Positions 12,967-55,406 are shown, numbered from the stretch's first letter. The stretch: DNA of 59,725 bases from Acidobacteriota bacterium (GCA_023265175.1 JAHFUI010000003.1:1-59725); one strand, 5' to 3'. Notes: generated by a model not told the origin, from the sequence alone. A program made the numbers and translations.

Positions 12967-13011
12967 GCTCCTAGAAGCGTGTCTGAGTAACCGGAACACG
13001 CTCCTAGTAGG
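12967..13011 (+). repeat. REP/BIME-like hairpin unit A (CCTAGAAGC-stem-loop GAGTAA-stem-GCTCCTAGTAGG)
   Basis: 7-bp stem AGCGTGT/ACACGCT with a 13-nt loop. It is homologous to the inverted unit at 13064-13107. Confidence 0.6.
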
Positions 13012-13063
13012 CCGGCTTCGCCGGCGAAAAAGCCAATGATGGAACGGACGCGCGCGCAGCGCG

Positions 13064-13107
13064 CCTACTAGGAGCCCGTTTCGGCATTACTCGGACGGGC
13101 TCCTAGG
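13064..13107 (-). repeat. REP/BIME-like hairpin unit B (inverted copy of unit A)
   Basis: 9-bp stem GGAGCCCGT/ACGGGCTCC. It shares the same 12-nt tail GCTCCTAGTAGG and the GAGTAA loop core. It overlaps the VWA gene stop codon. Confidence 0.6.
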
Positions 13108-15609: not shown

Positions 15610-15642
15610 CTTTCAACTTTTGACTTTTGCCTTTTAACTTTC
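15563..15642. terminator. AT-rich bidirectional hairpin between convergent DHH and patatin-like genes
   Basis: The left arm AAGTTAAGAGTCAAAAGTTAGAAGGCAAAAGTGAAGT pairs with the right arm AACTTTCAACTTTTGACTTTTGCCTTTTAACTT through three 7-bp helices (CAAAAGT/ACTTTTG twice, AAGTTAA/TTAACTT). It contains T-runs and overlaps both stop codons. Confidence 0.6.
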
Positions 15643-17232
15643 TATCTGTCCGACCCGCTCGCCGCTCGCGCCGACGATCGGCTCGATGAACTGGCGGTAC
15701 GCGTCCTCGTAGCCGCGCGCCATCAGCTCCTCGAGCGGCTGCACCCGGTCCGAGCGGTCGTCGAACGCCCCGGCGAAGTCAAACGGCCCGATGGGATTAT
15801 GGGCTGGCCGAATCGGAAAGATGCGCACGGATCTACGAACCGCCGCGCGCGTCGCGTCGCGAACCGCGGCGGCCTCCGCTGACTGAAGGTATTGACCAAA
15901 TCGTCCGCGGCCGTCGAGCCGCGGCGGTGACAGCGCGTGCGGTCCGTGCGCCTCCGGCGCCGCAGACACCAGCAGCACCTGCCCGGCCCCAAGCTGCGTG
16001 ACCTCTTCGATCACGCGCGCCACACTCGCCGGCCTGTCGCACACCCGATGCGTTTCACCACGCCAGAACGCATCCGCGGCAAACCGCACCGCGCCCGGTT
16101 CGCTCGCGACGGGAATGGCCAGGGCCCCGGCGACGATGTCCGGCAGATAGTCGCGCGCGACGCCAGACAAATCGAAGACCTCGGCTCGACGCTCCTCGGC
16201 CTCGGCGAGCGTCGTGCCTGGCCCGCCATGAAGGGCGTGCCCTGCAGTCGACTGTAGGGGACGGTCTTCCGCCTCCGCGTAAAGCTTCGGCGGACCGCCG
16301 TAGTCTTGGCGGAGGCGGTCAGACCGTCCCGCAGCCCGACGGTAGAGATCCCGGCGCCGCGACTCCGGCACCAGTGTGAAGATCAGGTCGCGATGCGCGT
16401 CCAGATCGTGAACCGCCAGGACCAGTTCCCGAAAACCCGGCTGGCCCAGGTTCTCACCGACAAGTTCGATGAACCGCCGACCCAGCTCAATGGGCGTCGG
16501 CTCCTTCAACTGCGCCGCGCCGCGCAGCAGATCCCACATCACGCTCCAACAATAATGCGCCGCTTGCGCCGACGACAGCGGCGGCCGCAGGATGCGCCAC
16601 CACCACGGTCCCCGATGCCGCCGGATGTCGCGACTCGCCGACCCACTCACAAAGGCCATGACACCGACTAGTCCGAGCACGAGCACGACGAGCCGCGGAA
16701 GCCACGTCGGAAGCGCCTCGGCCGCGAACGCGGTCTGTGTGAACCGGGAATACGCGCCGATTAGATTCCCTGCGCCGCCCAATCCCATCATCTTCAACAG
16801 GAAATCAATCGGATACACGACAAGTCCGAGCGCGATCGCGCCAATGGGGATCGCGACGATGGCGATCGACAGGGCCACCGCCCAAGCAAAGATGCGCAGC
16901 ATCGTCCGCCAGGGATAGAGGTTGCGTATCGCGGGTGAGGACCAGAAACCCTTCTCGTCCCACAACCGCTGCGCCCCGTCACAGGCCGCAAATAACGCGC
17001 CCACCACGCCGATGCCGTGACCGGCGACGATGTCAATTTTCACGCCGGCTTCGTGCAACGCACGGAGCACGCCTGCGTGGTACGCACCGGCAGTACCGGT
17101 ACCGGTCAAGACGAGGGCCGTGCGGAGTTGCGGAGAGTACGGTTCGGCGAGCGCGTGCGAGGCAGATTCGGGGTCGCCGGCGCCGAGGTGCTGGCGGGCC
17201 TCCGCGGCTGAAGCCGAAGGCGGGTCCATCAT
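15634..17232 (-). CDS. patatin-like phospholipase family membrane protein with degenerate catalytic motifs
   Basis: An N-terminal patatin block LVLTGTGTAGAYHAGVLRALHEAGVKIDIVAGHGIGVVGALFAA is followed by about four TM helices and a long C-terminal region. Confidence 0.65.
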   Translation of the reverse strand: MMDPPSASAAEARQHLGAGDPESASHALAEPYSPQLRTALVLTGTGTAGAYHAGVLRALHEAGVKIDIVAGHGIGVVGALFAACDGAQRLWDEKGFWSSPAIRNLYPWRTMLRIFAWAVALSIAIVAIPIGAIALGLVVYPIDFLLKMMGLGGAGNLIGAYSRFTQTAFAAEALPTWLPRLVVLVLGLVGVMAFVSGSASRDIRRHRGPWWWRILRPPLSSAQAAHYCWSVMWDLLRGAAQLKEPTPIELGRRFIELVGENLGQPGFRELVLAVHDLDAHRDLIFTLVPESRRRDLYRRAAGRSDRLRQDYGGPPKLYAEAEDRPLQSTAGHALHGGPGTTLAEAEERRAEVFDLSGVARDYLPDIVAGALAIPVASEPGAVRFAADAFWRGETHRVCDRPASVARVIEEVTQLGAGQVLLVSAAPEAHGPHALSPPRLDGRGRFGQYLQSAEAAAVRDATRAAVRRSVRIFPIRPAHNPIGPFDFAGAFDDRSDRVQPLEELMARGYEDAYRQFIEPIVGASGERVGQIES

Positions 17233-17702: not shown

Positions 17703-17796
17703 CGTCTCGATGACCCAACGTCACTCGTAAGGAGCGGGCCTGATCGTACCACAGTGTTATCCTTCGGAGGTCTGGGCACGAACGTCCAGCGCTGAG

Positions 17797-17885
17797 TCAC
17801 CACAAAGGACACAATGGGCACCAAGGCTCGGGCCTGTTTCCCGTACACGTTTGAGCCCTTGTGTCCTTCGAGTCCATTGTGGTGA
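17797..17885. promoter_or_regulatory. imperfect hairpin in the greA/trmH-family divergent region built from ..CACAA words
   Basis: TCACCACAA and AGGACACAA (17797-17814) pair with TTGTGTCCT and TTGTGGTGA (17859-17885). Confidence 0.4.
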
Positions 17886-17905
17886 TTCAGCGTTCGTCCC
17901 GGGCG

Positions 17906-20393: not shown

Positions 20394-20523
20394 CTGGTTA
20401 TCTGGTTATCTGGTTATTTGGTTATTTGGTTATTTGGTTATTTGGTTATTGATTGTTCAATTGATCAACAGATGACCGCCTCACCAGATAACCAGATAAC
20501 CAAATAACCAGACAACCAGATAA
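20394..20523. repeat. octamer-array palindromic element, copy 1 (7 + 5 units of TGGTTAT(C/T))
   Basis: (CTGGTTAT)x3 (TTGGTTAT)x4, a 34-nt spacer beginning TGATTG, then CCAGATAA CCAGATAA CCAAATAA CCAGACAA CCAGATAA. It fills the mutL-stop to small-ORF-ATG gap exactly. Confidence 0.9.
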
Positions 20524-22233
20524 CTACATCCGCTCGAAGTTCTTTTCGATCTCGCGGCGCGTCAACCGCAGCATCACCGGTCGTCCGTGCGGGCAGACGG
20601 TGGAGTAGGCGGTCGCCCTGAGCTCGTCGAGGATGTGCGTCATCTTCTCGTATGTGAGCGGATAGTTCGCCTTGACCGCCCCGTGACACGCCGTCGTCGC
20701 CGCAATCCTCCGCAACGCTTCCTGCACCTGTGCGCCTTTGTCCAGGCCTTCGAGGTCTTCGGCCAGGGCCAGCAGCGCGTTCGAGCTGTCTTCCGTTTTC
20801 AGCAACGCCGGCACCGCCGAGACTTTGATCGTTCCCTCGCCGAAGCCGTCGATCTCGAACCCCAGCCGCTCGAGCTCGGATGCGCGGCCGACCAGCGCCT
20901 GGTGCGCGGACGGCGCGACCTCGATGACGAGCGGCACGAGGAGCCGTTGCGATTCGAGCGGTCCGGCGGCGAGCCGCTCCATCACGCGCTCGAACAGCAC
21001 CCGTTCGTGCGCGACGTGCTGATCGATGATCGCCACACCCTCATCGTCGATGGCGATGATGAAGGTGTCGCGAAATTGCCCGAGCGGAATCATCGGGCGG
21101 ATGTCGGACGAACGCGTATCGGACGTGTGCGAATCGTAGGTGGGAGGCATCCAACGATTGGGGTACGCACCGCCGCCGAGGACGCCGGGAATCGACATCG
21201 CGACCGGTGATTGAGACTCGATCTCCGGACGCAATTGCAACTGCGGGACGCCGCCGTGCCCGAGCGCATCCATCAGCGCTCGACGCACGACCTCATGAAC
21301 GAGCGACTGGTCGCGGAAGCGTACCTCCGCTTTCGTGGGGTGAACGTTGACATCGACGGCGTCCGGCGGCATCTCGATGAACAGATGCACTTCCGGGCTT
21401 CGTTCCTTGATCGACGCGACGCTGTAGGAGTCGATGATCGCGTGCGCGATCGTCCGGTCCTTGACGATGCGGCGGTTGATGAAGACGTTCTGAGGTCCGC
21501 GGGTGGGGCCGTGCTCCGCCAGCGCCGCGATGCAGCCGGACACGCGCAGGCCGCCGGCATCTTTTCTCACCTCGATCAAATCGATGCGCTCGCCGTACAC
21601 CTGATACAACCGATCGTGCAACGACGCCGCGGGAGGACACTCGATCACCTTCCGGCCGCCGCTGGTCAACGTGAAGCCGACCTCGGGATGGGCCAGCGAC
21701 AGCTGCGTGACGATCCGCGACACCTGCGCGGACTCCGCGCTGTCGGATTTGAGGAATTTTCGCCGCGCCGGAAGGTTGTAAAACAGATCGTCGACCTGGA
21801 CGACCGTGCCTTTGGCCATCCCGACTTCGACGACGGATGTCACCGCGCCGCCGTTGACCCGGATTTCGGTGCCGCTGTCCTGGGCCTGCACGCGCGATCG
21901 CAGGAGGAAGTGCGAGACCGACGCGATCGACGGCAGCGCCTCGCCCCGAAACCCCAGCGTCGTGATCGCGGCCAGATCGCCGGCGCGCCGGATCTTGCTC
22001 GTCGCATGCCGCTCGATGGCCAGCCGCACGTCGGCGGGGTCCATCCCCTCGCCGTCATCTTCGACCCGGACCTGCTTCTTGCCGCCCAGCTCGACGTGAA
22101 TTGTGAGCCGGCGGGCGCCGGCGTCGATCGCGTTCTCGGCGAGTTCCTTGACCACCGACGCCGGCCGCTCCACGACCTCGCCGGCCGCTATCTGGTTCGC
22201 GAGATCCGGCGCTAAACGGCTGATTCGACCCAC
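20524..22233 (-). CDS. mutL: DNA mismatch repair protein MutL
   Basis: IAAGEVVERPASVVKELAENAIDAG...VEDDGEGM is the GHKL ATPase signature. A C-terminal CPHGRP motif is present. Confidence 0.95.
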   Translation of the reverse strand: MGRISRLAPDLANQIAAGEVVERPASVVKELAENAIDAGARRLTIHVELGGKKQVRVEDDGEGMDPADVRLAIERHATSKIRRAGDLAAITTLGFRGEALPSIASVSHFLLRSRVQAQDSGTEIRVNGGAVTSVVEVGMAKGTVVQVDDLFYNLPARRKFLKSDSAESAQVSRIVTQLSLAHPEVGFTLTSGGRKVIECPPAASLHDRLYQVYGERIDLIEVRKDAGGLRVSGCIAALAEHGPTRGPQNVFINRRIVKDRTIAHAIIDSYSVASIKERSPEVHLFIEMPPDAVDVNVHPTKAEVRFRDQSLVHEVVRRALMDALGHGGVPQLQLRPEIESQSPVAMSIPGVLGGGAYPNRWMPPTYDSHTSDTRSSDIRPMIPLGQFRDTFIIAIDDEGVAIIDQHVAHERVLFERVMERLAAGPLESQRLLVPLVIEVAPSAHQALVGRASELERLGFEIDGFGEGTIKVSAVPALLKTEDSSNALLALAEDLEGLDKGAQVQEALRRIAATTACHGAVKANYPLTYEKMTHILDELRATAYSTVCPHGRPVMLRLTRREIEKNFERM

Positions 22234-22358
22234 AGTCCCTTACCTACACCGAAAGGCACTTGGCTTGACGATCCGCAACGGGGCCGGTGGAAACCACACA
22301 GGCGGTCACTCGAACCCCCAGTCCCGCTGCGGAGCGTCAAGGCAAGTGCCCATCAGAA

Positions 22359-29423: not shown

Positions 29424-30099
29424 ACTGCTCTCTCCTGATTTCCCTGAGCACGCGCGCCGACTTGAGATCCTTCTCCAAGTGCATCGAGATGAGCGCGCGA
29501 TGCGCCGCCTCGATCTCGCGCAAGGCGCCGTTCGACACGGTCAGCCGTCCCAGCGTGAACGGACTGCACGTGCGCGCCGAGACCAGAAACGTCTTTGCGT
29601 CTGCCGAGATCCGGTCGTCGACCTCGTACACGCCCTGCAACCGGAGCAGCCAGTACTCGAAATAGCGCGCGAGGCGCTCGATCGGCACGCCCTCGGCGAT
29701 CGCCTCCACCATCGACGCGCCCAACCGGAACAGCGGCTCGTTCGGGTCGGCTTCCTGCGCCCATTCGTCGATCAGCTCGGCGAAATAGCCGACGTAGCCG
29801 AGCGCATCGCCATCGACCGCCGACATCGGGGATCGCGTCTGCTCGACGTAATCGACCCGGACCAGATCGCGCCGTTCGCGCTCGACGTACGTGATGCGGC
29901 CGCACGTGAGCGGCTCGAGCGCGCCACCGAAACGCCGCCGGCTCTGGCGCGCGTTCTTGGCCACACCGCGCTTCTTGCCGCGATCGCTCGTCAGAAAGAC
30001 GACGATGCGGTCGGACTCACCGAGCTTGTAGCAGCGGAGAATCAACGCGTCGGTGGTATACAGCGGCATGCGGAGGGCAGACTCATCACCGTACCACAT
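29419..30099 (-). CDS. recO: DNA repair protein RecO
   Basis: TDALILRCYKLGESDRIVVFLTSDRGKKRGVAKNAR is the RecO OB-fold block. The true start may be the second Met at 30069. Confidence 0.85.
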   Translation of the reverse strand: MWYGDESALRMPLYTTDALILRCYKLGESDRIVVFLTSDRGKKRGVAKNARQSRRRFGGALEPLTCGRITYVERERRDLVRVDYVEQTRSPMSAVDGDALGYVGYFAELIDEWAQEADPNEPLFRLGASMVEAIAEGVPIERLARYFEYWLLRLQGVYEVDDRISADAKTFLVSARTCSPFTLGRLTVSNGALREIEAAHRALISMHLEKDLKSARVLREIRREQC

Positions 30100-30187
30100 C
30101 TGGTCATTTGGTTATCTGGTTATCTGGTTATCTGGTCATTGATTGATCCAAATGACTAGATAACCAGATGACCAGATGTCCAAATTC
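30100..30187. repeat. octamer-array palindromic element, copy 2 (5 + 5 units)
   Basis: CTGGTCAT TTGGTTAT CTGGTTAT CTGGTTAT CTGGTCAT, loop TGATTGATCCAA, then ATGACTAG ATAACCAG ATGACCAG ATGTCCAA. It lies between the era stop and the recO ATG. Confidence 0.9.
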
Positions 30188-32378: not shown

Positions 32379-33064
32379 TTTTTACTCGCGCGGGGCCCCA
32401 CCCCCGCGCGCTGGCCGAGCTTCGCTTTCCCTCGGCCTCGAGCGTAGACTCTCGGCCTCGAGTGACTGTGAGCCGGCCCCACCCGCGCGCGCCGGCCGGG
32501 CTTCGCTCCCCCTCGGCCTCGAGCGTAGACTCTCGGCCCCGGGTGACTGTGATCCTTCGCTGCGGCCCGCTCGATCAAGCCTTCCCGCAGGCCGCCCTTG
32601 CGGCGCAGTCGCTGCTCGAGCCGTTGCATACGTCCGTGATCGCGCTCGTGATCGTAGCCAGCCAGATGGAGAAGACCATGTAGTGCCAGGACGCGAAGCT
32701 CGGTGCGCTCCGAATGGCCGGCCACGCGGGCCTGGCGCCTCGCTACGCCTCGCGCGATGACGATGTCTCCCAGAAAGAGGCTGGAGGCTGGGGACTTGGG
32801 ACCGGAGGACTCTCCTGCCGGGAATGACAACACATCGGTCGCGTAGTCGCGATGGCGGTAGCGACGATTGAGCGCGCGGATCCGCGCGTCGCTGATCATC
32901 GCGATACTCACCGTTCCGGCCACGCCGCCAGGCGCGACGCTCGCCAGCCAGCGCGCCAGGCCGGGCGCAGCCACCGCCCGTCCTCGCTCGTCGCCGACGA
33001 CCACTCGAAGCGCCACGGGGCCGCGTGGCCCGACACGCTCACGGCGTTGTCGTTCAGGATCCAT
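32375..33064 (-). CDS. ybeY: rRNA maturation RNase YbeY with an approximately 60-aa repeat-derived C-terminal extension
   Basis: The zinc motif ALHGLLHLAGYDHE is present. The ORF continues through two 81-nt tandem repeats and ends in an ATGA overlap with the next gene. Confidence 0.85.
   Translation of the reverse strand: MDPERQRRERVGPRGPVALRVVVGDERGRAVAAPGLARWLASVAPGGVAGTVSIAMISDARIRALNRRYRHRDYATDVLSFPAGESSGPKSPASSLFLGDIVIARGVARRQARVAGHSERTELRVLALHGLLHLAGYDHERDHGRMQRLEQRLRRKGGLREGLIERAAAKDHSHPGPRVYARGRGGAKPGRRARVGPAHSHSRPRVYARGRGKAKLGQRAGVGPRASKK
32392..32553. repeat. tandem 81-nt repeat x2 (GGGGCCCCACCC... family)
   Basis: Units 32392-32472 and 32473-32553 match at 71/81 positions by hand alignment without gaps. 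A related copy lies at 51375-51455. Confidence 0.85.
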
Positions 33065-45640: not shown

Positions 45641-46323
45641 CAGCTTCGAATGAGCTCGAGGGCGCGCTGTTCGAGCGCGGTCAAGCGCTGTTCAAGGGTC
45701 AATCGCGCGCGCTCGATGGCGGCATCGTCCGCGTCTGAGGCGACCTCGAACGGCTCGCCCATCGCAATGGACACGGTCGCGAACGGCTTCGGGATCTGCG
45801 TGCGATCCCAACTGCGGAGCGTCCAGTGACGATTCGCTTCCACGTGGAATGGCAGCACCGGGTTGCCGGTCGCCTTGGCGAGCCACACAGCGCCCGGCTG
45901 GGCGACACGCGCCGGACCGCGCGGGCCGTCGACGGTGAATCCGGCCGGCTTTCCCTCCGCCATATCACGTGTCAACTGGAGCAACGCCTTGCGGGCGCCC
46001 CGCGACGTCGATCCGCGGGCGGTTCCGTAGCCGAACCGTTCGATGATGCCCGCAATCCACTCGCCGTCGAAGTTCTCGCTCGTGATGACGACGATTCCGC
46101 GGCGGCGAAAGTAGTAGGTGGCAGGGAGGATGCGTCCGTGCCAGAACGCCATGATCGGCTGGCGCCCGCCGGCGATGATCTGATCGAGGTGCCCGAGTCC
46201 GTCGGTCCGCCAGCGCAGCGTCGACCCAAGAACCGCAATCAGCCGATACCCGACCGCGGCAATCAGCTTCGCCTGCAGGCGTTTGCTCACAGACCCGCGC
46301 CAGTCGGCCGCTGCCCTCACCAC
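45640..46323 (-). CDS. DUF374 domain-containing lysophospholipid acyltransferase-like protein
   Basis: MAFWHGRILP...SENFDGEWIAGIIERFGYGTARGSTSRGA...FTVDGPRGP is the typical DUF374 pattern. Confidence 0.7.
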   Translation of the reverse strand: MVRAAADWRGSVSKRLQAKLIAAVGYRLIAVLGSTLRWRTDGLGHLDQIIAGGRQPIMAFWHGRILPATYYFRRRGIVVITSENFDGEWIAGIIERFGYGTARGSTSRGARKALLQLTRDMAEGKPAGFTVDGPRGPARVAQPGAVWLAKATGNPVLPFHVEANRHWTLRSWDRTQIPKPFATVSIAMGEPFEVASDADDAAIERARLTLEQRLTALEQRALELIRS

Positions 46324-46361
46324 TTCACCAACTCACCACGTCATCAACGCTCACATCCTCC

Positions 46362-48188
46362 TCACATCCTCTCCTTGACGTACGTCATGAGGTCGACGAA
46401 TTGAACGTCGCCGCCCTCCGGCCCGGCGCTCGCATGCGCGCCCTTCAGCATGATCGAGCAGAACGGGCACGCGGTCACCACCGTGCCGGCGCCTGTCGCG
46501 CGGAGCTGCTTGAAGCGAACGTCGCTGATCCGCGAGCCCGGCTCCTCCTCCTTGTCCGCGAACAGCAGACCGCCACCAGCACCGCAGCAGAACGGGTTCT
46601 TCCGGTTTCGCTCCGGCTCCGAGATGTCACCGCCAAATCGCGTCAGCAGCCGCCGCGGTTCGTCCACCTTCCTGGCGTAGCGCCCGAGATAGCACGGATC
46701 GTGAAAGGCAACAGAGCCGTCTGTGGCCGTCGCCGTGCTGGAGACGCCGCGCAACAGCTCGTCGACGAACACCGCCGAGTGCACGATCTCGACGTCGTAC
46801 CCGAAATTGCGATAGTCGTCGCCGATCGTTTTCACGCAGTGCGGGCATGACGTCAGGATCGTCTTTGGACCCGCGGCCCTCAGATCGTCGATGTTGCCCT
46901 TGGCCAGTTCCTGAAACATATATTCATTGCCGGTGCGCTTGGCCGGATCCCCGGTGCAGCGCTCCTTCGACAGGACGCCGAACCTCACGCCGCGGGCCCG
47001 TAGGATGGCGAACAGCGACCGCATCGACTTCTGATAGTCGGCCTCGAACGCGCCCGCGCACCCGAGCCAGACGAGCACATCGTGCTTCGACGGATCGAAG
47101 ATCTCGAGTGCCGACGATTCGACGAACTTCTGCCGCTGATCGTAGCCGAGACCCCAGATGTTGCCGCGCCGCTCGAGGTGATTGTAGACGGCGCCGAGAT
47201 GCTCCGGCGCCTCGCCGCTAGAGACCAGCCCTCGCCGGGATCCAATCAAGATCGGCAGCTGCTCGATGCCGACCGGACACTGATTTTCGCACGCACCGCA
47301 CGTCGTGCACTGCCACAGCACCTTCTCGGAGTACACGGCGGCGAGCCGCGCCTCGCGGTTGCCCGCGAGCAACGCCTCCTGCGTCTGCAGGATGATCTCC
47401 TTGGGATTCAGCTCCTTTCCCGCCCCCCAAGCGGGACAGTTCACCTGGCAGCGGCCGCACTCGACGCACGTGAAGGCGTCGAGCACCATCTTGCTGCCGA
47501 GGTCCTTCACCTCCTCCAGCCCGACTTCCTCCTTCTCGAAATCCAGGTTCGGGAGATTGCCGAGCGTCCGCGACTTGAGAAAGACCGTGACGGGCGAAAG
47601 GAGGAGGTGGAAGTGTTTGGACGCCGGAATCAGCGCGAGGAACGCGAGGACGACCATCGCGTGCACCCACCAGTTCACGCGTCCCGCCGTGCTGTCCTCG
47701 GGCAGACGGTAGGTCAGCAGAAAGGTCACCATCAGCGTCGCGATCAGCAGGCCGATGACGATCGATTCAATCGATACGTGTGTGCCAAGCCCGACCGGCC
47801 GTACGATGGCGCGGCGCACGAGGAGATAAAGGATGCCGGCAAGTACGGCCCCGGCAAATCCCGTGAGCACGAGGCCATAGGTGTGGAACCACGCCGTGTG
47901 AGTCAGATCGACGATGCCGAGCCCATACAGAAACTCCGTTGTCGTATAGCCCGCGAACGCGACGAAGCCCCAGAAGACGAACGCGTGCGCAATTCCAGCA
48001 ACGGGACGCTCAGCAATCGTCTGGCGCTGGCAGAGGACGTCGACGCAAAACCGGCGGATGCGGAAGCCGATGCGGTCGATGGAAAACGTGTTCGGCGCGG
48101 CGGCGATCAGGCGGACGCGTGTCGCCACCTGCGCAGCGAACACACCGAGGGACACGATGACGAGCACCCACAACACGAGTGTTTCCAT
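46362..48188 (-). CDS. membrane-anchored (Fe-S)-binding oxidoreductase, ETF-associated (HdrD/GlpC-like with cytochrome-b-like N-terminus)
   Basis: About 5 N-terminal TM helices, two 4Fe-4S motifs (CVECGRCQVNCP, CTTCGACENQCP), two CCG-type Cys motifs (CPHCVKT, CCGAGGG), and a position adjacent to etfAB. Confidence 0.8.
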   Translation of the reverse strand: METLVLWVLVIVSLGVFAAQVATRVRLIAAAPNTFSIDRIGFRIRRFCVDVLCQRQTIAERPVAGIAHAFVFWGFVAFAGYTTTEFLYGLGIVDLTHTAWFHTYGLVLTGFAGAVLAGILYLLVRRAIVRPVGLGTHVSIESIVIGLLIATLMVTFLLTYRLPEDSTAGRVNWWVHAMVVLAFLALIPASKHFHLLLSPVTVFLKSRTLGNLPNLDFEKEEVGLEEVKDLGSKMVLDAFTCVECGRCQVNCPAWGAGKELNPKEIILQTQEALLAGNREARLAAVYSEKVLWQCTTCGACENQCPVGIEQLPILIGSRRGLVSSGEAPEHLGAVYNHLERRGNIWGLGYDQRQKFVESSALEIFDPSKHDVLVWLGCAGAFEADYQKSMRSLFAILRARGVRFGVLSKERCTGDPAKRTGNEYMFQELAKGNIDDLRAAGPKTILTSCPHCVKTIGDDYRNFGYDVEIVHSAVFVDELLRGVSSTATATDGSVAFHDPCYLGRYARKVDEPRRLLTRFGGDISEPERNRKNPFCCGAGGGLLFADKEEEPGSRISDVRFKQLRATGAGTVVTACPFCSIMLKGAHASAGPEGGDVQFVDLMTYVKERM

Positions 48189-49197: not shown

Positions 49198-49201
<4 letters not shown>

Positions 49202-49959
49202 ATGACGCGCGCCTCTTCGCGAAGCCGTCGAACCAGTTCCTTTGCGGCGTCGGCGGCCGAACCGTCGATGAGCTGCGTTTTCTTGGTTTTCTCAGGCACA
49301 TAGAGCCCGGCGATCTTCTGCGTGCGCGCCGACAGTGAAGAAGGCGTGACCTTCCGAATCTCTTTTTTCTTCGCCGCCATGATGCCCTTGAGCGTCGCAT
49401 AGCGGAGCTGATTGATGCCGCTTTGGATCGCCAGGACCGCCGGCATCGGCATCGTGACCCACTGAAACCAGCCGCCTTCGAGCTCGCGCTTCACACGCAC
49501 CGATGAGGTCTCGACGACGACTTCCATGATGATCGTCGCGTGCGGGAGACCGAGCCGCTCTGCCAGTACGACGCCCGTCTGCCCGAAGCCCTGGTCGTCT
49601 GACTGGAGACCCGTGAGGATGATGTCGAAGCGCTCCACCGTCATCGCCCCGGCAAGCGCCTCGGCGACGACGAACGCGTCGGCACTGGCGAGCGCTTCGT
49701 CTTCGACGTGGATGGCGCGATCGGCGCCGCGGGCGAGCGCTTCGCGGAGCACCTGCGCGACCCGCGCGGGACCGGCCGAGCAGACGACGACCTCGCCGCC
49801 GTGTTTCTCCTTGAGGCGCAGCGCCTCCTCGAGCGCGTAGGCGTCGGGCTCGTTCATTTCGTGGCTGGCGTCCGACTCACGGATCCAGGTTTTCGTCTCG
49901 TCGAGGCGCGGTTGCCAGTCTCTGGTGGGAACTTGCTTGAGGCAGACGGCAATCTTCAT
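49198..49959 (-). CDS. etfB: electron transfer flavoprotein subunit beta
   Basis: MKIAVCLKQVP...NEPDAYALEEALRLKE is the typical ETF-beta N-terminus. Confidence 0.9.
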
Positions 49960-50087
49960 TTGGTTATCTGGTTATCTGGTTATCTGGTTATTTGGCGACT
50001 TGGCGATTTGGTCATCTGGCGGGACGCGACATACCAATCAATAACCAGACAAATAACCAGAGAACCAAATGACCAGATAACCAAATA
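49960..50087. repeat. octamer-array palindromic element, copy 3 (8 + 5 units, core inverted)
   Basis: TTGGTTAT (CTGGTTAT)x3 TTGGCGAC TTGGCGAT TTGGTCAT CTGGCGGG ... CCAATCA ATAACCAG acaa ATAACCAG AGAACCAA ATGACCAG ATAACCAA. It lies between the fabF stop and the etfB ATG. Confidence 0.9.
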
Positions 50088-51338
50088 TCATGCGTTGCTG
50101 TCGTACCTCTTGAAGAGCAACGCGGCATTGGTGCCGCCGAAGCCGAACGAGTTCGAGAGCGCGTACTCGATGGCGATCGTGCGCTTGGCGTTCGGCACGT
50201 AGTCGAGGTCGCACTCGGGATCCGGTTGGTCCAGGTTAATCGTCGGCGGCACCATCTGATGATGCACCGCCAGCACCGTGATGCCGGCTTCGAGGCCTCC
50301 GGCGGCGCCGAGAAGATGCCCCGTCATCGATTTGGTCGAGGAGACGGCGACCTTCTTCGCGTGCTCTCCGAAGCAGCGCTTGATCGCGATGGTCTCGACC
50401 TTGTCGCCGTGCGGCGTTGACGTGCCGTGCGCGTTGATGTACGCCACCCGATCGGGACGAATGCCGCCGCTCTTGAGCGCCGTGCCCATGACTCGGAACG
50501 GGCCGTCGCCGTCCTCGGAGGGCGCGGTGATGTGATACGCATCCGCCGACATGCCGTAGCCGACCAGCTCGGCATAGATCCGCGCGCCCCGGCGGCGGGC
50601 CAGCTCGTATTCCTCAAGAATCAGCACGCCGGCACCTTCGCCGACGACGAAGCCGTCGCGATCCTTGTCGAAGGGGCGGCTCGCCCGCTGCGGTTCGTCG
50701 TTGCGCGTCGAGAGCGCGCGCATCGCGCCGAAGCCGCCGATGCCCATCGGCGTGATGGCCGCTTCCGAGCCGCCGGCAATCATCACGTCGGCGGCGTCGC
50801 GCCGGATGATTTCGAAGGCATCGCCGATGGCATGGGCGGAGGCAGAACAGGCGGTGCAGGTCGCCGAGTTGGGTCCGCGCGCGCCAAACCGGATCGAGAC
50901 CTGGCCGGCCGCCAGGTTGATGATCGCCGAGGGAATGAAGAAAGGTGAGATCTTGTGCGGCCCGCCTTCGAGCAGCGCCTTATGCTCCCGTTCGATCGTG
51001 GTGAACCCGCCGATGCCGGATGCAATGAACACCCCGACGCGCGGGCCCAGCTCCCGCGTCACCACCAGGCTGGCATCGTCGACGGCGAACTGCGAGGCCG
51101 CAATCGCGTACTGGATGAAGACGTCCATCTTCTTGACGTCTTTCTTCTCGACGAAGCGCAGCGGATCGAATCCTTTGACCTCGCCCGCGATCTGGGTCGA
51201 GAAGGCCGATGCGTCGAACTTGGTAATCGTGCCGACGCCGCATTGCCCGGCCGTGAGCGCCCGCCAGTTGGCATCGGTACCGATCCCGAGCGGCGACACC
51301 AATCCGATGCCCGTGACGACGACTCGCCTGTTCACCAT
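50088..51338 (-). CDS. fabF: beta-ketoacyl-ACP synthase II
   Basis: MVNRRVVVTGIGLVSPLG and the active-site block ATCTACSASAHAIG are present. The ORF is 416 aa. Confidence 0.95.
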   Translation of the reverse strand: MVNRRVVVTGIGLVSPLGIGTDANWRALTAGQCGVGTITKFDASAFSTQIAGEVKGFDPLRFVEKKDVKKMDVFIQYAIAASQFAVDDASLVVTRELGPRVGVFIASGIGGFTTIEREHKALLEGGPHKISPFFIPSAIINLAAGQVSIRFGARGPNSATCTACSASAHAIGDAFEIIRRDAADVMIAGGSEAAITPMGIGGFGAMRALSTRNDEPQRASRPFDKDRDGFVVGEGAGVLILEEYELARRRGARIYAELVGYGMSADAYHITAPSEDGDGPFRVMGTALKSGGIRPDRVAYINAHGTSTPHGDKVETIAIKRCFGEHAKKVAVSSTKSMTGHLLGAAGGLEAGITVLAVHHQMVPPTINLDQPDPECDLDYVPNAKRTIAIEYALSNSFGFGGTNAALLFKRYDSNA

Positions 51339-51374
51339 TGTTCTATGCTCGCGGAGCCCTGCATCTCCCTGTCG

Positions 51375-51455
51375 CGCCGGGGCCCCACCCCCGGCGCTTG
51401 CCGCTTCGTGCGTTCGCGCTCAGCGGCAGATGAAGGCTCTCGCTCGCCCTGCTGG
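51375..51455. repeat. third, diverged copy of the GGGGCCCCACCCCC repeat family in the acpP-fabF spacer
   Basis: It shares the 14-mer GGGGCCCCACCCCC (51379-51392) and roughly 65% of about 80 nt with the ybeY-tail units. It has a 9-bp GC stem around the loop CCCCAC. Confidence 0.6.
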
Positions 51456-51457
51456 GT

Positions 51458-51700
51458 CTATTTTTTTGATTTGGCGTGGGATTCGATGTACTCGACCGCT
51501 TCCTTCACGCGAGTGATCTTCTCGGCATCCTCGTCGGGGATCTCGATGCCGAACTCTTCCTCGAATGCCATCACGAGCTCGACGGTGTCCAGCGAGTCGG
51601 CGCCGAGGTCGTCAACGAACGATGCGTCCGGTGTGACTTCTTCCTCGTCGACCCCGAGCTGCTCCACGATGATGCTCTTCACTTTGTCGGATACCGCCAT
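51458..51700 (-). CDS. acpP: acyl carrier protein
   Basis: [20 protein letters not shown] contains the phosphopantetheine-attachment Ser. Confidence 0.97.
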
Positions 51701-51709
51701 TCAGCCCTC

Positions 51710-52456
51710 CTACATGTACATCCCGCCGTTGACGGCCAGGACGTGCCCAGTAATATACGCTGCCTCGTCGGCTGCAAGAAAGCACACTGCGGCCGCCACA
51801 TCCTCGGGGGTGCCGAGTCGACCGAGCGGAATCTCCACCGCCCAGTCGATTTGCACCTTCTCGGCGATCGCGCGCGTCATGTCCGTGTCGATCATGCCGG
51901 GTGCCACGACGTTCACCGTGATGCCCCGGGACGCGACTTCTCGCGCGAGCGCCTTCGCGAAGCCGATCAGCCCGGCCTTCGACGCGGCATAACTCGTCTG
52001 CCCCGCGTTGCCGGTTTGCCCCACCACCGAGCTGATCGCGATGATCCGTCCGCCGCGCTGCTTCAGCATCGGCCGGATCGCCGCCTGCGCGAGGCTGAAG
52101 GTCGCCGTCAGGTTCGTGCCGATGACGGCGTCCCAGTCCTCGCGCTTCATCCGCGCCAGCAACTGGTCGCGCGTGATGCCGGCGTTGCTGACCACGATGT
52201 CGAGGCGGCCGTGACGCCGCACGATGTCGCCGGGCAACTGTGCGATCGCGGCCGCGTCCGTCACGTCGATGGCCGCCGCCTCTGCGCGATAGCCCCTAGA
52301 CGTCAGCTCGGCGGCCACCGCGAGGGCATGGTCGCCGCGCGCGGCCGCGACCACCATTGCGCCTCGTCCCGCCAGCGCGCACGCAATCCCACGTCCGATG
52401 CCACGCGACGCGCCGGTCACCAGTGCGACCTTGCCGGTCAGATCGAACATCGGCAC
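51710..52456 (-). CDS. fabG: 3-oxoacyl-ACP reductase FabG
   Basis: GKVALVTGASRGIG and YAASKAG form the SDR signature. The start may be ATG 52450 (MFDLTGK). Confidence 0.93.
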   Translation of the reverse strand: MPMFDLTGKVALVTGASRGIGRGIACALAGRGAMVVAAARGDHALAVAAELTSRGYRAEAAAIDVTDAAAIAQLPGDIVRRHGRLDIVVSNAGITRDQLLARMKREDWDAVIGTNLTATFSLAQAAIRPMLKQRGGRIIAISSVVGQTGNAGQTSYAASKAGLIGFAKALAREVASRGITVNVVAPGMIDTDMTRAIAEKVQIDWAVEIPLGRLGTPEDVAAAVCFLAADEAAYITGHVLAVNGGMYM

Positions 52457-52463
52457 ATCACAT

Positions 52464-52605
52464 TTGGTTATCTGGTTATCTGGTTATCTCGTTATCTGGT
52501 TATCTGGTTATCTGGTTATCTCGTTATCTGGTTATCTGGTCATTGATTGAGACATTGGTCAGCAAATAACCAAATAACCAGATAACGAGATAACCAGATT
52601 TAGCC
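52464..52605. repeat. octamer-array palindromic element, copy 4 (10 + 4 units, 32-nt higher-order repeat)
   Basis: TTGGTTAT CTGGTTAT CTGGTTAT CTCGTTAT (CTGGTTAT)x3 CTCGTTAT CTGGTTAT CTGGTCAT, then TGATTGAGACATTGGTCAGCA, then ATAACCAA ATAACCAG ATAACGAG ATAACCAG. Confidence 0.9.
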
Positions 52606-53530
52606 GTTGAATCAGAGGCGCGATCGCCTCGAGATCCTCCGGAGCACCAAAGCTCAATACGGTCGCGTCGCGATGAATCTTCCGTACCAATCCGGCCAAC
52701 ACCGAGCCAGGACCCACCTCAACATACGTTGTGACGCCTTCTGACGCAAGACGCCGGACGACCGCCTCCCACCGCACGGCCGATGACACCTGCGCGATGA
52801 GCGCCTCGACGGCGGCCTTCGCGTCGCGTTTGACCTCGGCGTCCACGTTGGCGACGATCGGCACACGCGGATCGCGTGTATCCACGGCACGCAGTTCAGG
52901 CGCCAGCCGGTCCGCTGCGGGTTGCATCAACGCGCAGTGGAAGGGTGCACTGACCGGCAGCGGCACGACGCGCCTGGCGCCCAAGGCCTTGGCACGGTCG
53001 CCCGCGCGCGTCACGGCGTCGCGCGTGCCGGCAATCACCACCTGCCCGCCACCGTTCAAGTTCGCCGGGCTGACGACCTCGCCCTGCGCCGCCTCCTCGC
53101 ATGCCTGCGCAACCTGGCCGGCGTCCAGGCCGAGGATGGCGGCCATGGCGCCCGCGCCCACGGGCACCGCCTCCTGCATGTACCGGCCACGCCGCCGCAC
53201 CAGCCGTAACGCATCAGCAAAAGAAAACGTGCCGGCGGCGACGTTGGCCGAGTATTCCCCGAGCGAATGCCCGGCGACGAAGCCCGGCATGATGCGCCGC
53301 GACGCCAGCAGACGGTACGCGGCGATGCTGACCGCAAGAATTGCGGGTTGGGTGTTTTCGGTCAGGGTGAGTTGGTCGTCCGGACCTTCGAAGCAGAGCC
53401 TGCTGAGCGGTTCGCCGAGCGCCGCGTCAGCTTCGGCGAATGTGTCGCGACAGACCGGGAAGGCGTCGGCGAGCGCCTTCCCCATGCCGACTTTCTGCGA
53501 CGCCTGCCCGGGGAAGATGAACGCGATCAA
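52559..53530 (-). CDS. fabD: ACP S-malonyltransferase FabD, with the last ~12 codons encoded by octamer element 4
   Basis: IAFIFPGQASQ and the GHSLGEYSA active site are present. The TTG start at 53528-53530 overlaps the plsX stop. The C-terminus ..LIQRLNLVISLSGYLVIC reads through the repeat arm. Confidence 0.9.
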   Translation of the reverse strand: MIAFIFPGQASQKVGMGKALADAFPVCRDTFAEADAALGEPLSRLCFEGPDDQLTLTENTQPAILAVSIAAYRLLASRRIMPGFVAGHSLGEYSANVAAGTFSFADALRLVRRRGRYMQEAVPVGAGAMAAILGLDAGQVAQACEEAAQGEVVSPANLNGGGQVVIAGTRDAVTRAGDRAKALGARRVVPLPVSAPFHCALMQPAADRLAPELRAVDTRDPRVPIVANVDAEVKRDAKAAVEALIAQVSSAVRWEAVVRRLASEGVTTYVEVGPGSVLAGLVRKIHRDATVLSFGAPEDLEAIAPLIQRLNLVISLSGYLVIC

Positions 53531-54537
53531 CGGTTCGGCACTGCGGCGGCGGCGATGTCCTGCTCGACGCGTTCGATGAAACGGTTGGTGGCGAAGCGGT
53601 ACGCCATGGCGACGGCGTTGCGCACGGCCCGCGCGCTGGACCGGCCGTGACCGACGATCGTGACGCCGGCGACCCCGAGCAGCGGCGCGCCCCCGTACTC
53701 CGAGTAATCGACACGCCGGCGAAAACGCCGCAGCGCGCGCTTCGTGAACAGCGATCCGACGCGCATCGGCACGGTGCTCGACAGTTCCTCGCTCAACAAC
53801 GCCTCCATCACGTCGACGAGTCCCTCGCTGGTCTTGAGCACGACGTTGCCCGTGAAGCCGTCGCAGACGATGACGTCCGCGTCGCCGCTGTAGATGTCGC
53901 GCGCTTCGATGTTGCCCACGAACGCGACGGGCGATCCCTTGAGCAGCCGGTGCGCCTCTCGGGTCAGCTCGTTGCCTTTGGTTTCCTCTTTGCCGATCGA
54001 CAGCAGGCCGACGCGCGGCGAGGCGATGTCGAACGCCAGACGCGCGTACACGGTGCCCATCACCGCGAACTGCAGCAGGTGATGAGGCCGGCACTCGACG
54101 CTCGCGCCCGCGTCAAGCAGGATGGCCGGCCGGCGTCGCGTCGGAATGGTGACCGCCAGGGCCGGACGATCGACGCCTGGTAGCGTACCGAACGCGCTGT
54201 AGGCCGCCATGACGGTCGCACCCGTGTGCCCCATGCTGACGAGCGCCGAACACTCGCCGCGAGCCACCAATTCGGCGGCGACTGTGATCGACGCCTCTGG
54301 CTTTCGCCGCAGAGCGGCGGCGGGCGATTCCGCCATCGCGACCACGTCGGTCGCGTCGACGGTGCGCACCCGCGACGCATCGACGTGAGGGTGGCGGGCA
54401 ATCTCCGCCTTGAGGACCGGTCGCGGGCCGGCCAGCACGACCCCGAGATCGAAGTGCCGTACCGCCGCCAGGACGCCGTCGACGATCTGACGTGGGGCGT
54501 AATCGCCGCCCAGGGCGTCGACGGCTATCCAAATCAT
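53527..54537 (-). CDS. plsX: phosphate acyltransferase PlsX
   Basis: MIWIAVDALGGDYAP is the typical PlsX start, and the GNVVLK block is present. The ORF-track extension through the upstream repeat was rejected. Confidence 0.9.
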   Translation of the reverse strand: MIWIAVDALGGDYAPRQIVDGVLAAVRHFDLGVVLAGPRPVLKAEIARHPHVDASRVRTVDATDVVAMAESPAAALRRKPEASITVAAELVARGECSALVSMGHTGATVMAAYSAFGTLPGVDRPALAVTIPTRRRPAILLDAGASVECRPHHLLQFAVMGTVYARLAFDIASPRVGLLSIGKEETKGNELTREAHRLLKGSPVAFVGNIEARDIYSGDADVIVCDGFTGNVVLKTSEGLVDVMEALLSEELSSTVPMRVGSLFTKRALRRFRRRVDYSEYGGAPLLGVAGVTIVGHGRSSARAVRNAVAMAYRFATNRFIERVEQDIAAAAVPNR

Positions 54538-54627
54538 GCTCGGTGCTCCAGTGCTGGTGCTCAGTGCTCGGTGCTGGTGCTCGGACCAGCACGGAGCCGA
54601 AGCACCCAGCACGAAGCACTCAGCACT
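54538..54627. repeat. imperfect palindrome built from GCT(C/G)(N)GT words filling the rpmF-plsX spacer
   Basis: Left arm: GCTCGGT GCTCCAGT GCTGGT GCTCAGT GCTCGGT GCTGGT GCTCGG. Right arm: ACCAGC ACGGAGC CGAAGC ACCCAGC ACGAAGC ACTCAGC. Confidence 0.7.
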
Positions 54628-54639
54628 CAACAAGAATCG

Positions 54640-54822
54640 TTAGTCTTCGTCAACCGCCTTCACCTGGCGTCCCCGGTAGTACGCGCAGTTGGCGCACACG
54701 CGATGGGGTTGCTTGGGCTCGTGGCAGTGCGGGCATTCGCCGAGGCCGGAGGCCTTGAGCGCGTCGTGCGTCCGACGCTTCGCCGTCCGCGTCTTGGAAT
54801 GTCGTCGTTTTGGATTTGGCAT
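54640..54822 (-). CDS. rpmF: 50S ribosomal protein L32
   Basis: MPNPKRRHSKTRTAKRRTHDAL and CPHCHEPKQPHRVCANC are present. The protein is 60 aa. Confidence 0.9.
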   Translation of the reverse strand: MPNPKRRHSKTRTAKRRTHDALKASGLGECPHCHEPKQPHRVCANCAYYRGRQVKAVDED

Positions 54823-54872: not shown

Positions 54873-55406
54873 TTAGCTTCCTTTGTGTTTGTCGTTTCTT
54901 AGCTTCTCCAGCACCGCGAGCCTCGGATCCTCCCATTCGCGCTTGCAGCCGCACGTCTCGCGGTTCAAGTTCGTTCCGCAGTCGGGGCACAGCCCGCGAC
55001 AGTCCGCACGGCACAGCGGCTTCATCGGGAGCGCCAGATAGAACTGTTCGCGCATCAACTGACCAAGGTCGATCGTCTCGTCTTCATAAAACGCCGTGGT
55101 CAGATCGTCTGCCTCAATCTCACGCTCACCCTCGCCCGTGTTCGCCGCGTGCGGTTGGTACCGCAGATCGAACGACGCGTCGAGGGGTAAAGTGAACGGC
55201 TCCAGACATCGGCTGCAGGACAACTCCAGGGTCGTCTGCACGCCGCCGACGAGCCGAAACTGCGCCTTGTCCTTGAAGATGTCGAAGGAGAGCGGCACCT
55301 GTTCGATGACCCGGAAGCTGTCGCGATCGTTGGCGAACGCCTCCGGTCCGTAGACCTTCTCGTACCGCTCGTGCGCGGTCCGAATCTTCCTGAGATTCAG
55401 CAGCAT
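54873..55406 (-). CDS. yceD: DUF177/YceD family protein (23S rRNA accumulation protein)
   Basis: It has the conserved position upstream of rpmF and the C-terminal Cys-rich CRADCRGLCPDCGTNLN. Confidence 0.8.
   Translation of the reverse strand: MLLNLRKIRTAHERYEKVYGPEAFANDRDSFRVIEQVPLSFDIFKDKAQFRLVGGVQTTLELSCSRCLEPFTLPLDASFDLRYQPHAANTGEGEREIEADDLTTAFYEDETIDLGQLMREQFYLALPMKPLCRADCRGLCPDCGTNLNRETCGCKREWEDPRLAVLEKLRNDKHKGS

Follow-up and report, generated by a model that had tools for sequence, protein, structure and literature searches.

We analysed a 59,725-nt stretch of DNA (hereafter the window; Acidobacteriota bacterium, GCA_023265175.1 JAHFUI010000003.1:1-59725), whose host was placed by its FabD homologues as a Vicinamibacterales bacterium (Acidobacteriota). 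At the junction between fabD and fabG, two opposed runs of an 8-nt unit flank a short loop. Coordinates are given on the plus strand of the window; the fab genes are encoded on the minus strand. We consider it fairly probable that the feature, which lies in a transcribed spacer of the plsX-fabD-fabG-acpP-fabF operon, is a simple-sequence array that is both palindromic and hypermutable; any function for the array is something that we infer.

The whole array measures 136 nt. Unit parsing resolved its fabG-proximal arm (the 3' arm in the mRNA; 52464-52543, minus strand) into ten units, which read ATGACCAG (ATAACCAG/ATAACGAG)x8 ATAACCAA on the gene strand and TTGGTTAT, CTGGTTAT x2, CTCGTTAT, CTGGTTAT x3, CTCGTTAT, CTGGTTAT, CTGGTCAT on the plus strand, with the plus-strand consensus YTGGTTAT. 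The opposed arm, proximal to fabD (the 5' arm in the mRNA; 52566-52599, minus strand), contains four inverted units, AT + CTGGTTAT CTCGTTAT CTGGTTAT TTGGTTAT; on the plus strand, 52566-52597 reads ATAACCAA, ATAACCAG, ATAACGAG, ATAACCAG and is followed by AT. Between the arms lies a 22-nt loop (52544-52565, minus strand) that holds the current fabD stop codon, TGA 52559-52561, and a CAATCA motif. Tandem Repeats Finder reported a period of 8, 9.5 copies and 94 % matches. With at most one mismatch allowed, the octamer occurred 50 times in the window, as against 10.8 +/- 3.4 times in shuffled sequences, none of which (0/100) reached 50, and exact copies were confined to four arrays. The array is thus a short unit repeated head to tail beyond chance, that is, a simple sequence repeat (SSR); a long SSR class with units of 5-11 nt is attributed to Mrazek 2007 in the summary given in passages of PMC4679880. 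The ten octamer units and the mirrored CTCGTTAT/ATAACGAG variant, both described in the initial annotation of this sequence, were recovered by the same parsing.

That annotation had also noted perfect pairing of units 7-9 with the opposite arm, and this pairing extends to 26 bp when the flanking AT is included. A second register of similar quality was found, in which 52478-52514 pairs with 52563-52599 (37 nt at 95 %, compared with 35 nt at 94 % for the first); two near-equal registers exist because the array has a 32-nt period. RNAfold gave -71.5 kcal/mol (z = -10) for the gene-sense RNA and preferred the 37-nt register, and the array folded as DNA gave -36.3 kcal/mol (z = -7.7). Since the second register is about equally good, the six units that had been described as unpaired beside fabG are so in one register but not in the other, which is the one preferred by RNAfold. 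The proposed 32-nt higher-order repeat is real, with a self-identity of 46/48 at a shift of 32 as against 66/72 at a shift of 8, but its support is thin, namely two copies of one variant unit. The two arms also differ in what they encode. The fabD-proximal arm has no stop codon in any of the three frames, and (CTGGTTAT)n cycles through L-V-I-W-L-S-G-Y, so that any open reading frame (ORF) entering it is extended; three units of the fabG-proximal arm, (ATAACCAG)n, are enough to place a TAA in every frame, and this arm ends in an AT that is joined to G.

The fabD gene is one such ORF. As proposed earlier, its frame contains no stop before the loop and reads to TGA 52559-52561, with the tail ...APLIQRLNLVISLSGYLVIC, so that the C-terminus of FabD reads ...FGAPEDLEAIAPLIQRLNLVISLSGYLVIC and stops in the loop. 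The tail comprises 14 codons, LNLVISLSGYLVIC (52562-52603, minus strand), the last 12 of which (52562-52597) come from the repeat arm and the beginning of the loop. Counted from the last conserved Q, the 15 following codons encode RLNLVISLSGYLVIC, and FabD is therefore extended by 14-15 residues. The native end of the protein, which the initial annotation had suggested checking against orthologues, was located in the 120 best (closest) homologues: FabD ends 7-9 residues after a P[DE]DL motif in 113 of these 120, the maximum is 17, and the value in the window is 23. None of the 120 close homologues carries the hydrophobic tail LNLVISLSGYLVIC, and the 88-90 %-identical relatives L001, L002 and L191 are free of the array; the claim that the repeat encodes the last ~12 residues of FabD thus holds. 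The same annotation called the C-terminus rewritten. It is indeed repeat-encoded, but it is an extension, as the native sequence is kept as far as ...APLIQ. Across the clade, the C-terminus of FabD varies, and between 1 and 30 aa follow the conserved ...L.

Comparison of the junction with that of close relatives revealed how the extension is likely to have arisen. In L001 and L002 (90 % FabD identity), the junction reads ...TCA CAA TGA tttc ATG TTC GAT, and in L191 (88 % FabD identity) it reads ...TCA AAA TAA tctc ATG; all three have a 4-nt spacer and no array. The same junction in the window reads ...ATT CAA [CGGCTAA + array + ATG] TGA tgtgccg ATG TTC GAT. Because the closest repeat-free relatives have a 4-nt spacer between fabD and fabG, the comparison shows the array as what reads as a lineage-specific, recent gain of 143-146 nt just before the old fabD stop. 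The ATG-TGA hexamer at 52458-52463 (minus strand) was confirmed to consist of an ATG (52461-52463), whose AT continues the repeat, followed at once by a TGA, 7 nt upstream of ATG 52450; the latter was confirmed as the fabG start by orthologues beginning MFDLTGK. TGA 52458-52460 aligns with the fabD stop of L001 and L002 (CAA TGA). Deletion of 146 nt (52461-52606) brings this TGA in frame directly after the Q codon, and deletion of 143 nt also restores its frame if the ATG is ancestral. Judged from this alignment, TGA 52458-52460 is probably a relic of the original fabD stop that was displaced by the insertion, because it falls in frame after removal of 143 or 146 nt, where FabD of L001 stops. 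Since the length of the insert is not a multiple of three, the fabD frame continues into the arm. Seven nucleotides, CGGCTAA (52600-52606, minus strand), lie between the FabD codon Q (52607-52609) and the first AT of the array. Nothing equivalent is present in relatives or in the other arrays, and the heptanucleotide may be filler left where the insert was joined.

Variation in unit number, which had been suggested as a check, was found in a near-identical strain. L190 (European Nucleotide Archive (ENA) ERZ27286489, an 18-kb contig) encodes an identical 323-aa FabD and is 99.9 % identical to the window over 4,972 nt, from which it differs by five single-nucleotide polymorphisms (SNPs) and one 48-nt indel. 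Both records are short-read assemblies. In the window, the FabD of 323 aa with its tail is followed by a fabD-fabG gap of 108 nt, arranged as 4 units, loop and 10 units; in L190 the gap is 60 nt, arranged as 4 units, the same loop and 4 units. The indel is exactly six units of the fabG-side arm, including both ATAACGAG units, and can be assigned to 52490-52537 (minus strand), a placement that is arbitrary within the repeat. Consequently, L190 keeps CTCGTTAT in its fabD-side arm and has no ATAACGAG in the other arm, and the mirroring is restricted to the window. These alignments indicate a whole-unit change in copy number between close relatives, as in SSRs. The L190 allele can be derived from that of the window by one slippage deletion, and the window allele can be derived from that of L190 if the complement of the fabD-side arm is copied and 32 nt are then duplicated. 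With either derivation, the unit number would be unstable in 8-nt steps, and the mirrored variant would be specific to one allele. Two further fabD alleles came from sibling samples: P0121 (ENA ERZ27297709) encodes a FabD of 306 aa that ends ...EAIAPL and is 100 % identical over 306 residues, with a gap of 128 nt by gene calls, and P0001 (ENA ERZ27297570) encodes a FabD of 309 aa that ends ...TSLISG and is 95 % identical, with a gap of 80 nt. These two are probably intermediate states of the array. The lengths of tail and spacer are polymorphic among very close strains, which argues that the FabD tail is dispensable.

The initial annotation had offered arm-to-arm copying or selection for pairing as the source of the mirrored units. 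The absence of ATAACGAG from the fabG-side arm of L190, whose fabD-side arm keeps CTCGTTAT, supports this directly, as does the co-variation of unit type across the two arms of an array at the fabF-etfB junction, where L114 has GGTCAT/ATGACC in both arms and the window has mostly GGTTAT/ATAACC in both. At the rpmF-plsX junction, L002 has a single A/C-rich arm next to the ATG, and in the window both arms are present. Mutation by template switching between the arms of imperfect inverted repeats is well established (PMC7202029, PMC8604942, PMC13100816). The array resembles quasipalindromes subject to such mutagenesis in that a variant in one arm is copied as its complement and the arms homogenise and grow (PMC7202029, PMC8604942, PMC13100816). 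It differs in that template switching is a mechanism and not a class of elements, and has been described for single imperfect inverted repeats, whereas the arms here are tandem arrays.

Three sister arrays with the YTGGTTAT unit were found in the window, all on the minus strand. They link the stop codon of mutL to the ATG of a 56-aa ORF (20394-20524), that of era to the recO ATG (30098-30182), and that of fabF to the etfB ATG (49958-50087). Each occupies its entire stop-to-ATG gap and ends ...CCAR|ATG, with the repeat carried on into the AT of the start codon; the fabD-fabG array ends 10 nt before the fabG ATG. The four same-unit arrays are inverted pairs of 85-136 nt whose loops share the CAATCA motif but are otherwise different. 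This motif, present in the fabD-fabG loop, also stands (as CAATCA/TGATTG) beside one arm in each sister array; in the fabF-etfB array, TGATTG has the opposite orientation from that in the other three. Orthologues of the fabF-etfB array are present in L002, L191 and L114 (78-90 % FabD identity), and its polarity and the position of TGATTG are conserved in L002 and L114. The other arrays tested all fold strongly (z from -4.4 to -11), and in two of them, A1 and A3, the predicted stem begins immediately downstream of the stop and closes immediately upstream of the AUG.

In more distant relatives, different 7-8-nt units occupy the same operon junctions, often as inverted pairs. The units include GTGGAAAA/TTTTCCAC, GGTTCCG/CGGAACC, ACGGAGAC/CTCCGTGC, GGTTGGT/ACCAACC, CAATGCC/GAGCATT and (GGGACAA)9. 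They were found between fabD and fabG in L131 (1660-1750), L149, L156, L115, L152 and L133, between fabF and etfB in L125, L126, L140 and L152, and between fabG and acpP in L126, L131, L133, L140, L157 and L159. The C-terminus of FabD also runs into the first arm in L131, L149 and L156 (examples among relatives end ...KWKS* and ...EKVEK*).

Beyond this clade, matches to three consecutive units listed in the search came from Acidobacteriota, many Bacteroidota, Planctomycetota and others; among 2.9 million viral contigs, 11 contained three consecutive units. Across 106 loci, an ATG-initiated ORF of at least 100 aa began within 10 nt of 26/160 ATAACCAR-sense sides, compared with 3/129 YTGGTTAT-sense sides (p = 1e-4; the ORF calling behind this count is crude). 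The T/G-rich arm came first in 19 of 20 two-arm arrays, a measure that is independent of the strand read. In arrays with a called gene (high-G+C loci), the arm on the ATG side was at least as long as the other in 10/10 cases and strictly longer in eight. L007 and L101 have an ATAACCAR run alone, with no partner arm. Separately, the Metamycoplasmataceae metagenome-assembled genome contig CBDHHR010000629.1 (L064; 300-6190) carries kilobase-scale TGGTTATY arrays with >300 units in several blocks, far larger than those at other loci; they may be a satellite or code for a repetitive protein.

These observations can be combined into the following model. Units would be gained and lost by replication slippage in registers of 8 and 32 nt, and intrastrand (hairpin) template switching would create, extend and homogenise the second arm, thereby accounting for the mirrored CTCGTTAT/ATAACGAG units. 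Once transcribed, the array would fold into a hairpin of 35-37 bp, leaving a G-poor AUAACCAR tract immediately ahead of the start region, and this tract would probably serve as a landing or re-initiation region for fabG in an organism poor in Shine-Dalgarno (SD) motifs. The stops in all three frames would shield fabG from reading that enters from upstream, the unit number would tune fabG output, and the FabD tail would be a tolerated by-product. The hairpin may keep the stop codon on its upstream side close to the AUG on its downstream side; alternatively, it may be a processing or stability signal. Passages of PMC6728339 and PMC4833913 document termination-reinitiation coupling and reinitiation after mini-ORFs in bacteria, and it is plausible that a putative mini-ORF, the ATG-TGA located 7 nt upstream of the fabG AUG, acts as a re-initiation relay.

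Several observations weigh against this model. Slippage alone does not account for the presence of one octamer at four unrelated junctions, and a copying or mobility step is needed. The seven nucleotides CGGCTAA at the insertion junction are left unaccounted for, and the 32-nt higher-order repeat is thinly supported, resting on two variant units. The difference between 4 and 10 units in near-identical strains speaks against tight selection on length, and the shorter allele of L190 could be a collapse in short-read graph assembly; the five SNPs indicate that L190 comes from a different population. Most array sides in other phyla have no ORF start within 10 nt (by crude ORF calling), and a further palindromic array in the window, at 15563-15641 between convergent genes, has no adjacent start codon.

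An alternative is that the array is a neutral by-product of slippage and template switching in unconstrained spacers, with no effect on expression. The high turnover of units and lengths among relatives, the array between convergent genes and the free variation of the FabD C-terminus in the clade are consistent with this explanation. It would leave the maintenance of the fabF-etfB array at the same junction and in the same polarity in relatives of 78-90 % FabD identity unexplained, as well as the 19-to-1 polarity, the bias towards start codons and the location of arrays at tight operon junctions and not in the larger intergenic regions of the window; we regard it as possible but doubtful. Somewhat less likely is arrival by transposition of a non-autonomous element resembling a miniature inverted-repeat transposable element (MITE), with tandem octamers as its terminal inverted repeats and with no host function. 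In its favour, the unit and the CAATCA/TGATTG motif recur at four unrelated junctions within 60 kb and in other Acidobacteriota genomes, presence at the fabD-fabG junction differs between close relatives, and the fabF-etfB copy is inverted relative to the motif. However, the sole shared flank is AT, itself part of the palindrome and of the ATG, so that no target-site duplication can be separated from the AT...AT ends. Copies differ in length and in their loops, single-arm arrays exist (L007, L101 and the rpmF-plsX junction of L002), relatives have other 7-8-nt units at the same junctions, and strains that are 99.9 % identical differ in copy number by whole units. Viral contigs rarely contain the unit triple, and no transposase candidate, target duplication or defined element boundary was found, the ORFs of the window not having been screened for transposases.

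We consider it quite unlikely that the array is primarily an mRNA-processing or stability element, whose duplex, as a target of RNase III or a barrier to exonucleases, would uncouple the transcript levels of fabD and fabG, in the manner of REP/BIME (repetitive extragenic palindromic sequences/bacterial interspersed mosaic elements) and Correia elements. RNase III cleaves transcribed Correia hairpins, and REP hairpins stabilise mRNA. A near-perfect duplex of 35-37 bp within an operon transcript, the strong folding of all sister arrays and the lack of the U tract of an intrinsic terminator would fit such a role. Hairpin-free, single-arm arrays at equivalent positions do not, and the biases of orientation and polarity favour the ATAACCAR tract beside the ATG and not the duplex. 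Least of all do we expect an artefact, whether through misassembly of the repeat or through loss of a stop codon. Assembly of short-unit repeats is difficult, and L190 and the window disagree by 48 nt; yet two records separated by five SNPs elsewhere agree exactly in the fabD-side arm, the loop, the tail codons and the flanks, the 323-aa FabD is present in both NCBI and ENA sources, such arrays occur in dozens of independent assemblies, and the whole array is shorter than a typical read. A stop codon lost through a sequencing error, which the initial annotation had named as a possible objection, is very unlikely on this evidence.

Other candidates were rejected. No intrinsic terminator was found in 52300-52750, where the A/U-rich stem is followed by AAUGUGAUG and no U tract; no sigma-70 promoter was found in the array; and no Rfam 15 family matched at or above its gathering score in the whole window. 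A DnaA box or an operator for a fab regulator was rejected because the same array occurs at the mutL, era-recO and fabF-etfB junctions, and a phage origin was rejected on the rarity of three consecutive units in viral contigs.

The array lies in a fatty-acid operon within a window of ~64 % G+C. On the minus strand, gene calls placed yceD (54873-55406), rpmF (54640-54822), plsX (53527-54537), acpP (51458-51700), fabF (50088-51338) and etfB (49198-49959) around fabD (malonyl-CoA:acyl carrier protein (ACP) transacylase; 52559-53530, minus strand), which was delimited by Pfam and its reading frame as 323 aa with the tail, and fabG (3-oxoacyl-ACP reductase, MFDLTGK...; 51710-52450, minus strand), whose start at ATG 52450 was set by orthologue starts. 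FabD matched PF00698 (Acyl_transf_1; E = 2.5e-36) over residues 3-275 of the scanned fragment, and the match stops ~48 residues short of the stop codon. An exact look-up of the FabG sequence of the window returned no match. No SD-like motif was found upstream of the fabG ATG 52450; in the whole window, SD-like 4-mers preceded 7 of 30 confidently placed gene starts. The acpP start is a clear exception (taGGAGGgctgaATG), and its motif is kept in relatives. The acpP-fabF spacer (51339-51457) measures 119 nt in the window, compared with 6 nt in L001 and L002, and holds GGGGTGGGGCCCC (51379-51391). A second copy at 32392-32404 forms the edge of an 81-nt tandem duplication (32394-32552, two copies, 91 %), and the GGGGTGGGGCCCC sites may represent another dispersed G+C-rich element.

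Further repeats were observed elsewhere in the window. The rpmF-plsX spacer (54538-54639) contains a palindromic heptamer-like array, with GAGTGCT-type units, a loop and GAGCACC-type units ending ...GAGC|ATG at plsX; it folds at -60.6 kcal/mol (z = -6.3), and one SNP between the window and L190 falls inside it at 54566. The array at 15563-15641 is a palindromic AAAGTTAA/TAACTTT-like array between a DHH-family gene (14164-15609) and a 532-aa gene (15634-17232), which converge and end ...KEVKSQKLEGKSEVAS and ...GQIES; no start codon lies beside it because both ORFs end inside its arms, and with its U-rich 3' arm it may be a bidirectional terminator. Three further intergenic inverted repeats (17790-17892, 22255-22350 and 12991-13084) have arms of 36-40 nt that are 78-83 % complementary, and the arms of the first show a loose 8-9-nt periodicity (CACCACAA AGGACACAA TGGGCACCAA). 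At 46315-46371, at the junction after a gene ending at 46362, there are direct 8-nt and 11-nt repeats, GTGGTGAG TTGGTGAA GTGGTGAG and GGATGTGAGGA x2 on the gene strand, which are G-rich and not A/C-rich and have no inverted partner.

The closest precedent for the array is the TAACTGA heptamer repeats upstream of start codons. These are intergenic direct repeats near start codons in Beggiatoaceae, Cyanobacteria and some Bacteroidetes (MacGregor 2015, PMC4679880). Like them, the octamer arrays are short-unit intergenic tandem repeats whose forward side lies a few nucleotides from start codons where SD motifs are rare; every frame is closed by stops in the forward sense, while the reverse sense can be translated (as LSVISYQ in those repeats and LVIWLSGY here); and the distribution among phyla is scattered and includes Bacteroidetes (PMC4679880). 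The frequency of SD motifs in the TAACTGA-bearing Beggiatoa genome, 25 %, is similar to that in the window, and binding by S1, Csp or CsrA was proposed for those repeats (PMC4679880). At the fabD-fabG junction, a stop-rich side ends a few nucleotides from a start codon that has no SD motif, as in the TAACTGA-type repeats. The unit is not TAACTGA itself, though similar to it when the ATAACCAR octamer is written in the same register, TAACCAGA. Unlike the TAACTGA repeats, the unit is an octamer, several unit families occur in one genome, the host is a 64 % G+C acidobacterium, inverted runs form hairpins of 25-40 bp (PMC4679880 has 169 direct sets and one indirect), and the upstream ORF reads into the reverse-sense arm.

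Cyanobacterial heptamers of the short tandemly repeated repetitive (STRR) type also lie near starts, for example GAC(C/T)AAT x8 before Nostoc recO, and deletion constructs suggested a regulatory role for them, mainly at the promoter level (bioRxiv 10.1101/2022.06.06.494920). One array of the window also precedes recO, by coincidence. The cyanobacterial heptamers differ in being direct only, with no hairpin partner and no ORF extension. In passages of PMC3733652, REP, BIME and REPIN sequences are high-copy extragenic hairpin repeats within operons that are credited with mRNA stabilisation, and in this respect they resemble the arrays. They are, however, palindromes of 20-40 nt that carry a GTAG/CGTC tag and are linked to RAYT (REP-associated tyrosine transposase) genes, unlike the variable-number tandem octamers here. 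Membership of this group was rejected, as the arms start ATCTGG/ATTTGG, consist of 8-nt units and have no GTAG/CGTC at either end; nor was a RAYT gene identified, the ORFs of the 60 kb not having been screened for Y1 transposases.

MITEs of the Correia type (Correia repeat enclosed elements, CREE) are inverted repeats in spacers that form transcribed hairpins, can alter the ends of neighbouring ORFs and are present or absent between strains. MITEs in general have a defined length, a conserved internal sequence and a target-site duplication. The fabD-fabG array is likewise an inverted-repeat insert in a spacer, but its copy number changes unit by unit, and the four copies in the window share neither a length nor a core beyond CAATCA. 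Another comparison is with contingency loci, such as the phase-variable AGAT repeats in the 5' untranslated region of Moraxella uspA2 (as summarised in passages of PMC4679880). As far as that summary goes, the array is similar in its whole-unit change between close strains and in a tract between promoter and start codon that could tune expression, and it differs from the 1-5-nt units in surface and virulence genes of host-adapted pathogens by being a palindromic octamer array in a housekeeping operon of a soil bacterium.

Literature searches returned no paper describing palindromic short-unit arrays of this kind, and searches on the unit sequence and on Vicinamibacteria repeats returned nothing relevant. 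The paired hairpin form of start-codon-proximal repeats thus appears to be undescribed. The fabD-fabG array belongs to a genome-wide, cross-phylum class of short start-codon-adjacent repeats. A broader and distinctly tentative proposal, to which we give a low probability, is that palindromic arrays of 7-8-nt units form an undescribed class of operon-junction elements in SD-poor bacteria (Vicinamibacteria, Bacteroidota and others), in which the hairpin would draw stop and AUG close to each other at its base, the G-poor, stop-rich arm would be an SD-independent landing or re-initiation pad, and the unit number would tune the ratio of cistrons.

How start codons are found in largely SD-less bacteria is still an open question, and repeats that abut start codons are known but have never been explained. 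The locus extends such repeats to Acidobacteriota, an abundant and poorly studied soil phylum, and adds a paired hairpin architecture with a strong polarity rule and evidence of concerted evolution of the arms. The locus also illustrates cleanly how a repeat can give a protein a new C-terminal sequence. At one housekeeping junction there is a natural allelic series, in which relatives have 0 units, strains of 99.9 % identity have 4 and 10, and FabD either carries or lacks the repeat-encoded tail; this series makes the function of the repeat testable. If the tract beside the start codon is indeed a landing pad, such arrays would provide housekeeping operons with a heritable and rapidly adjustable dial for stoichiometry.

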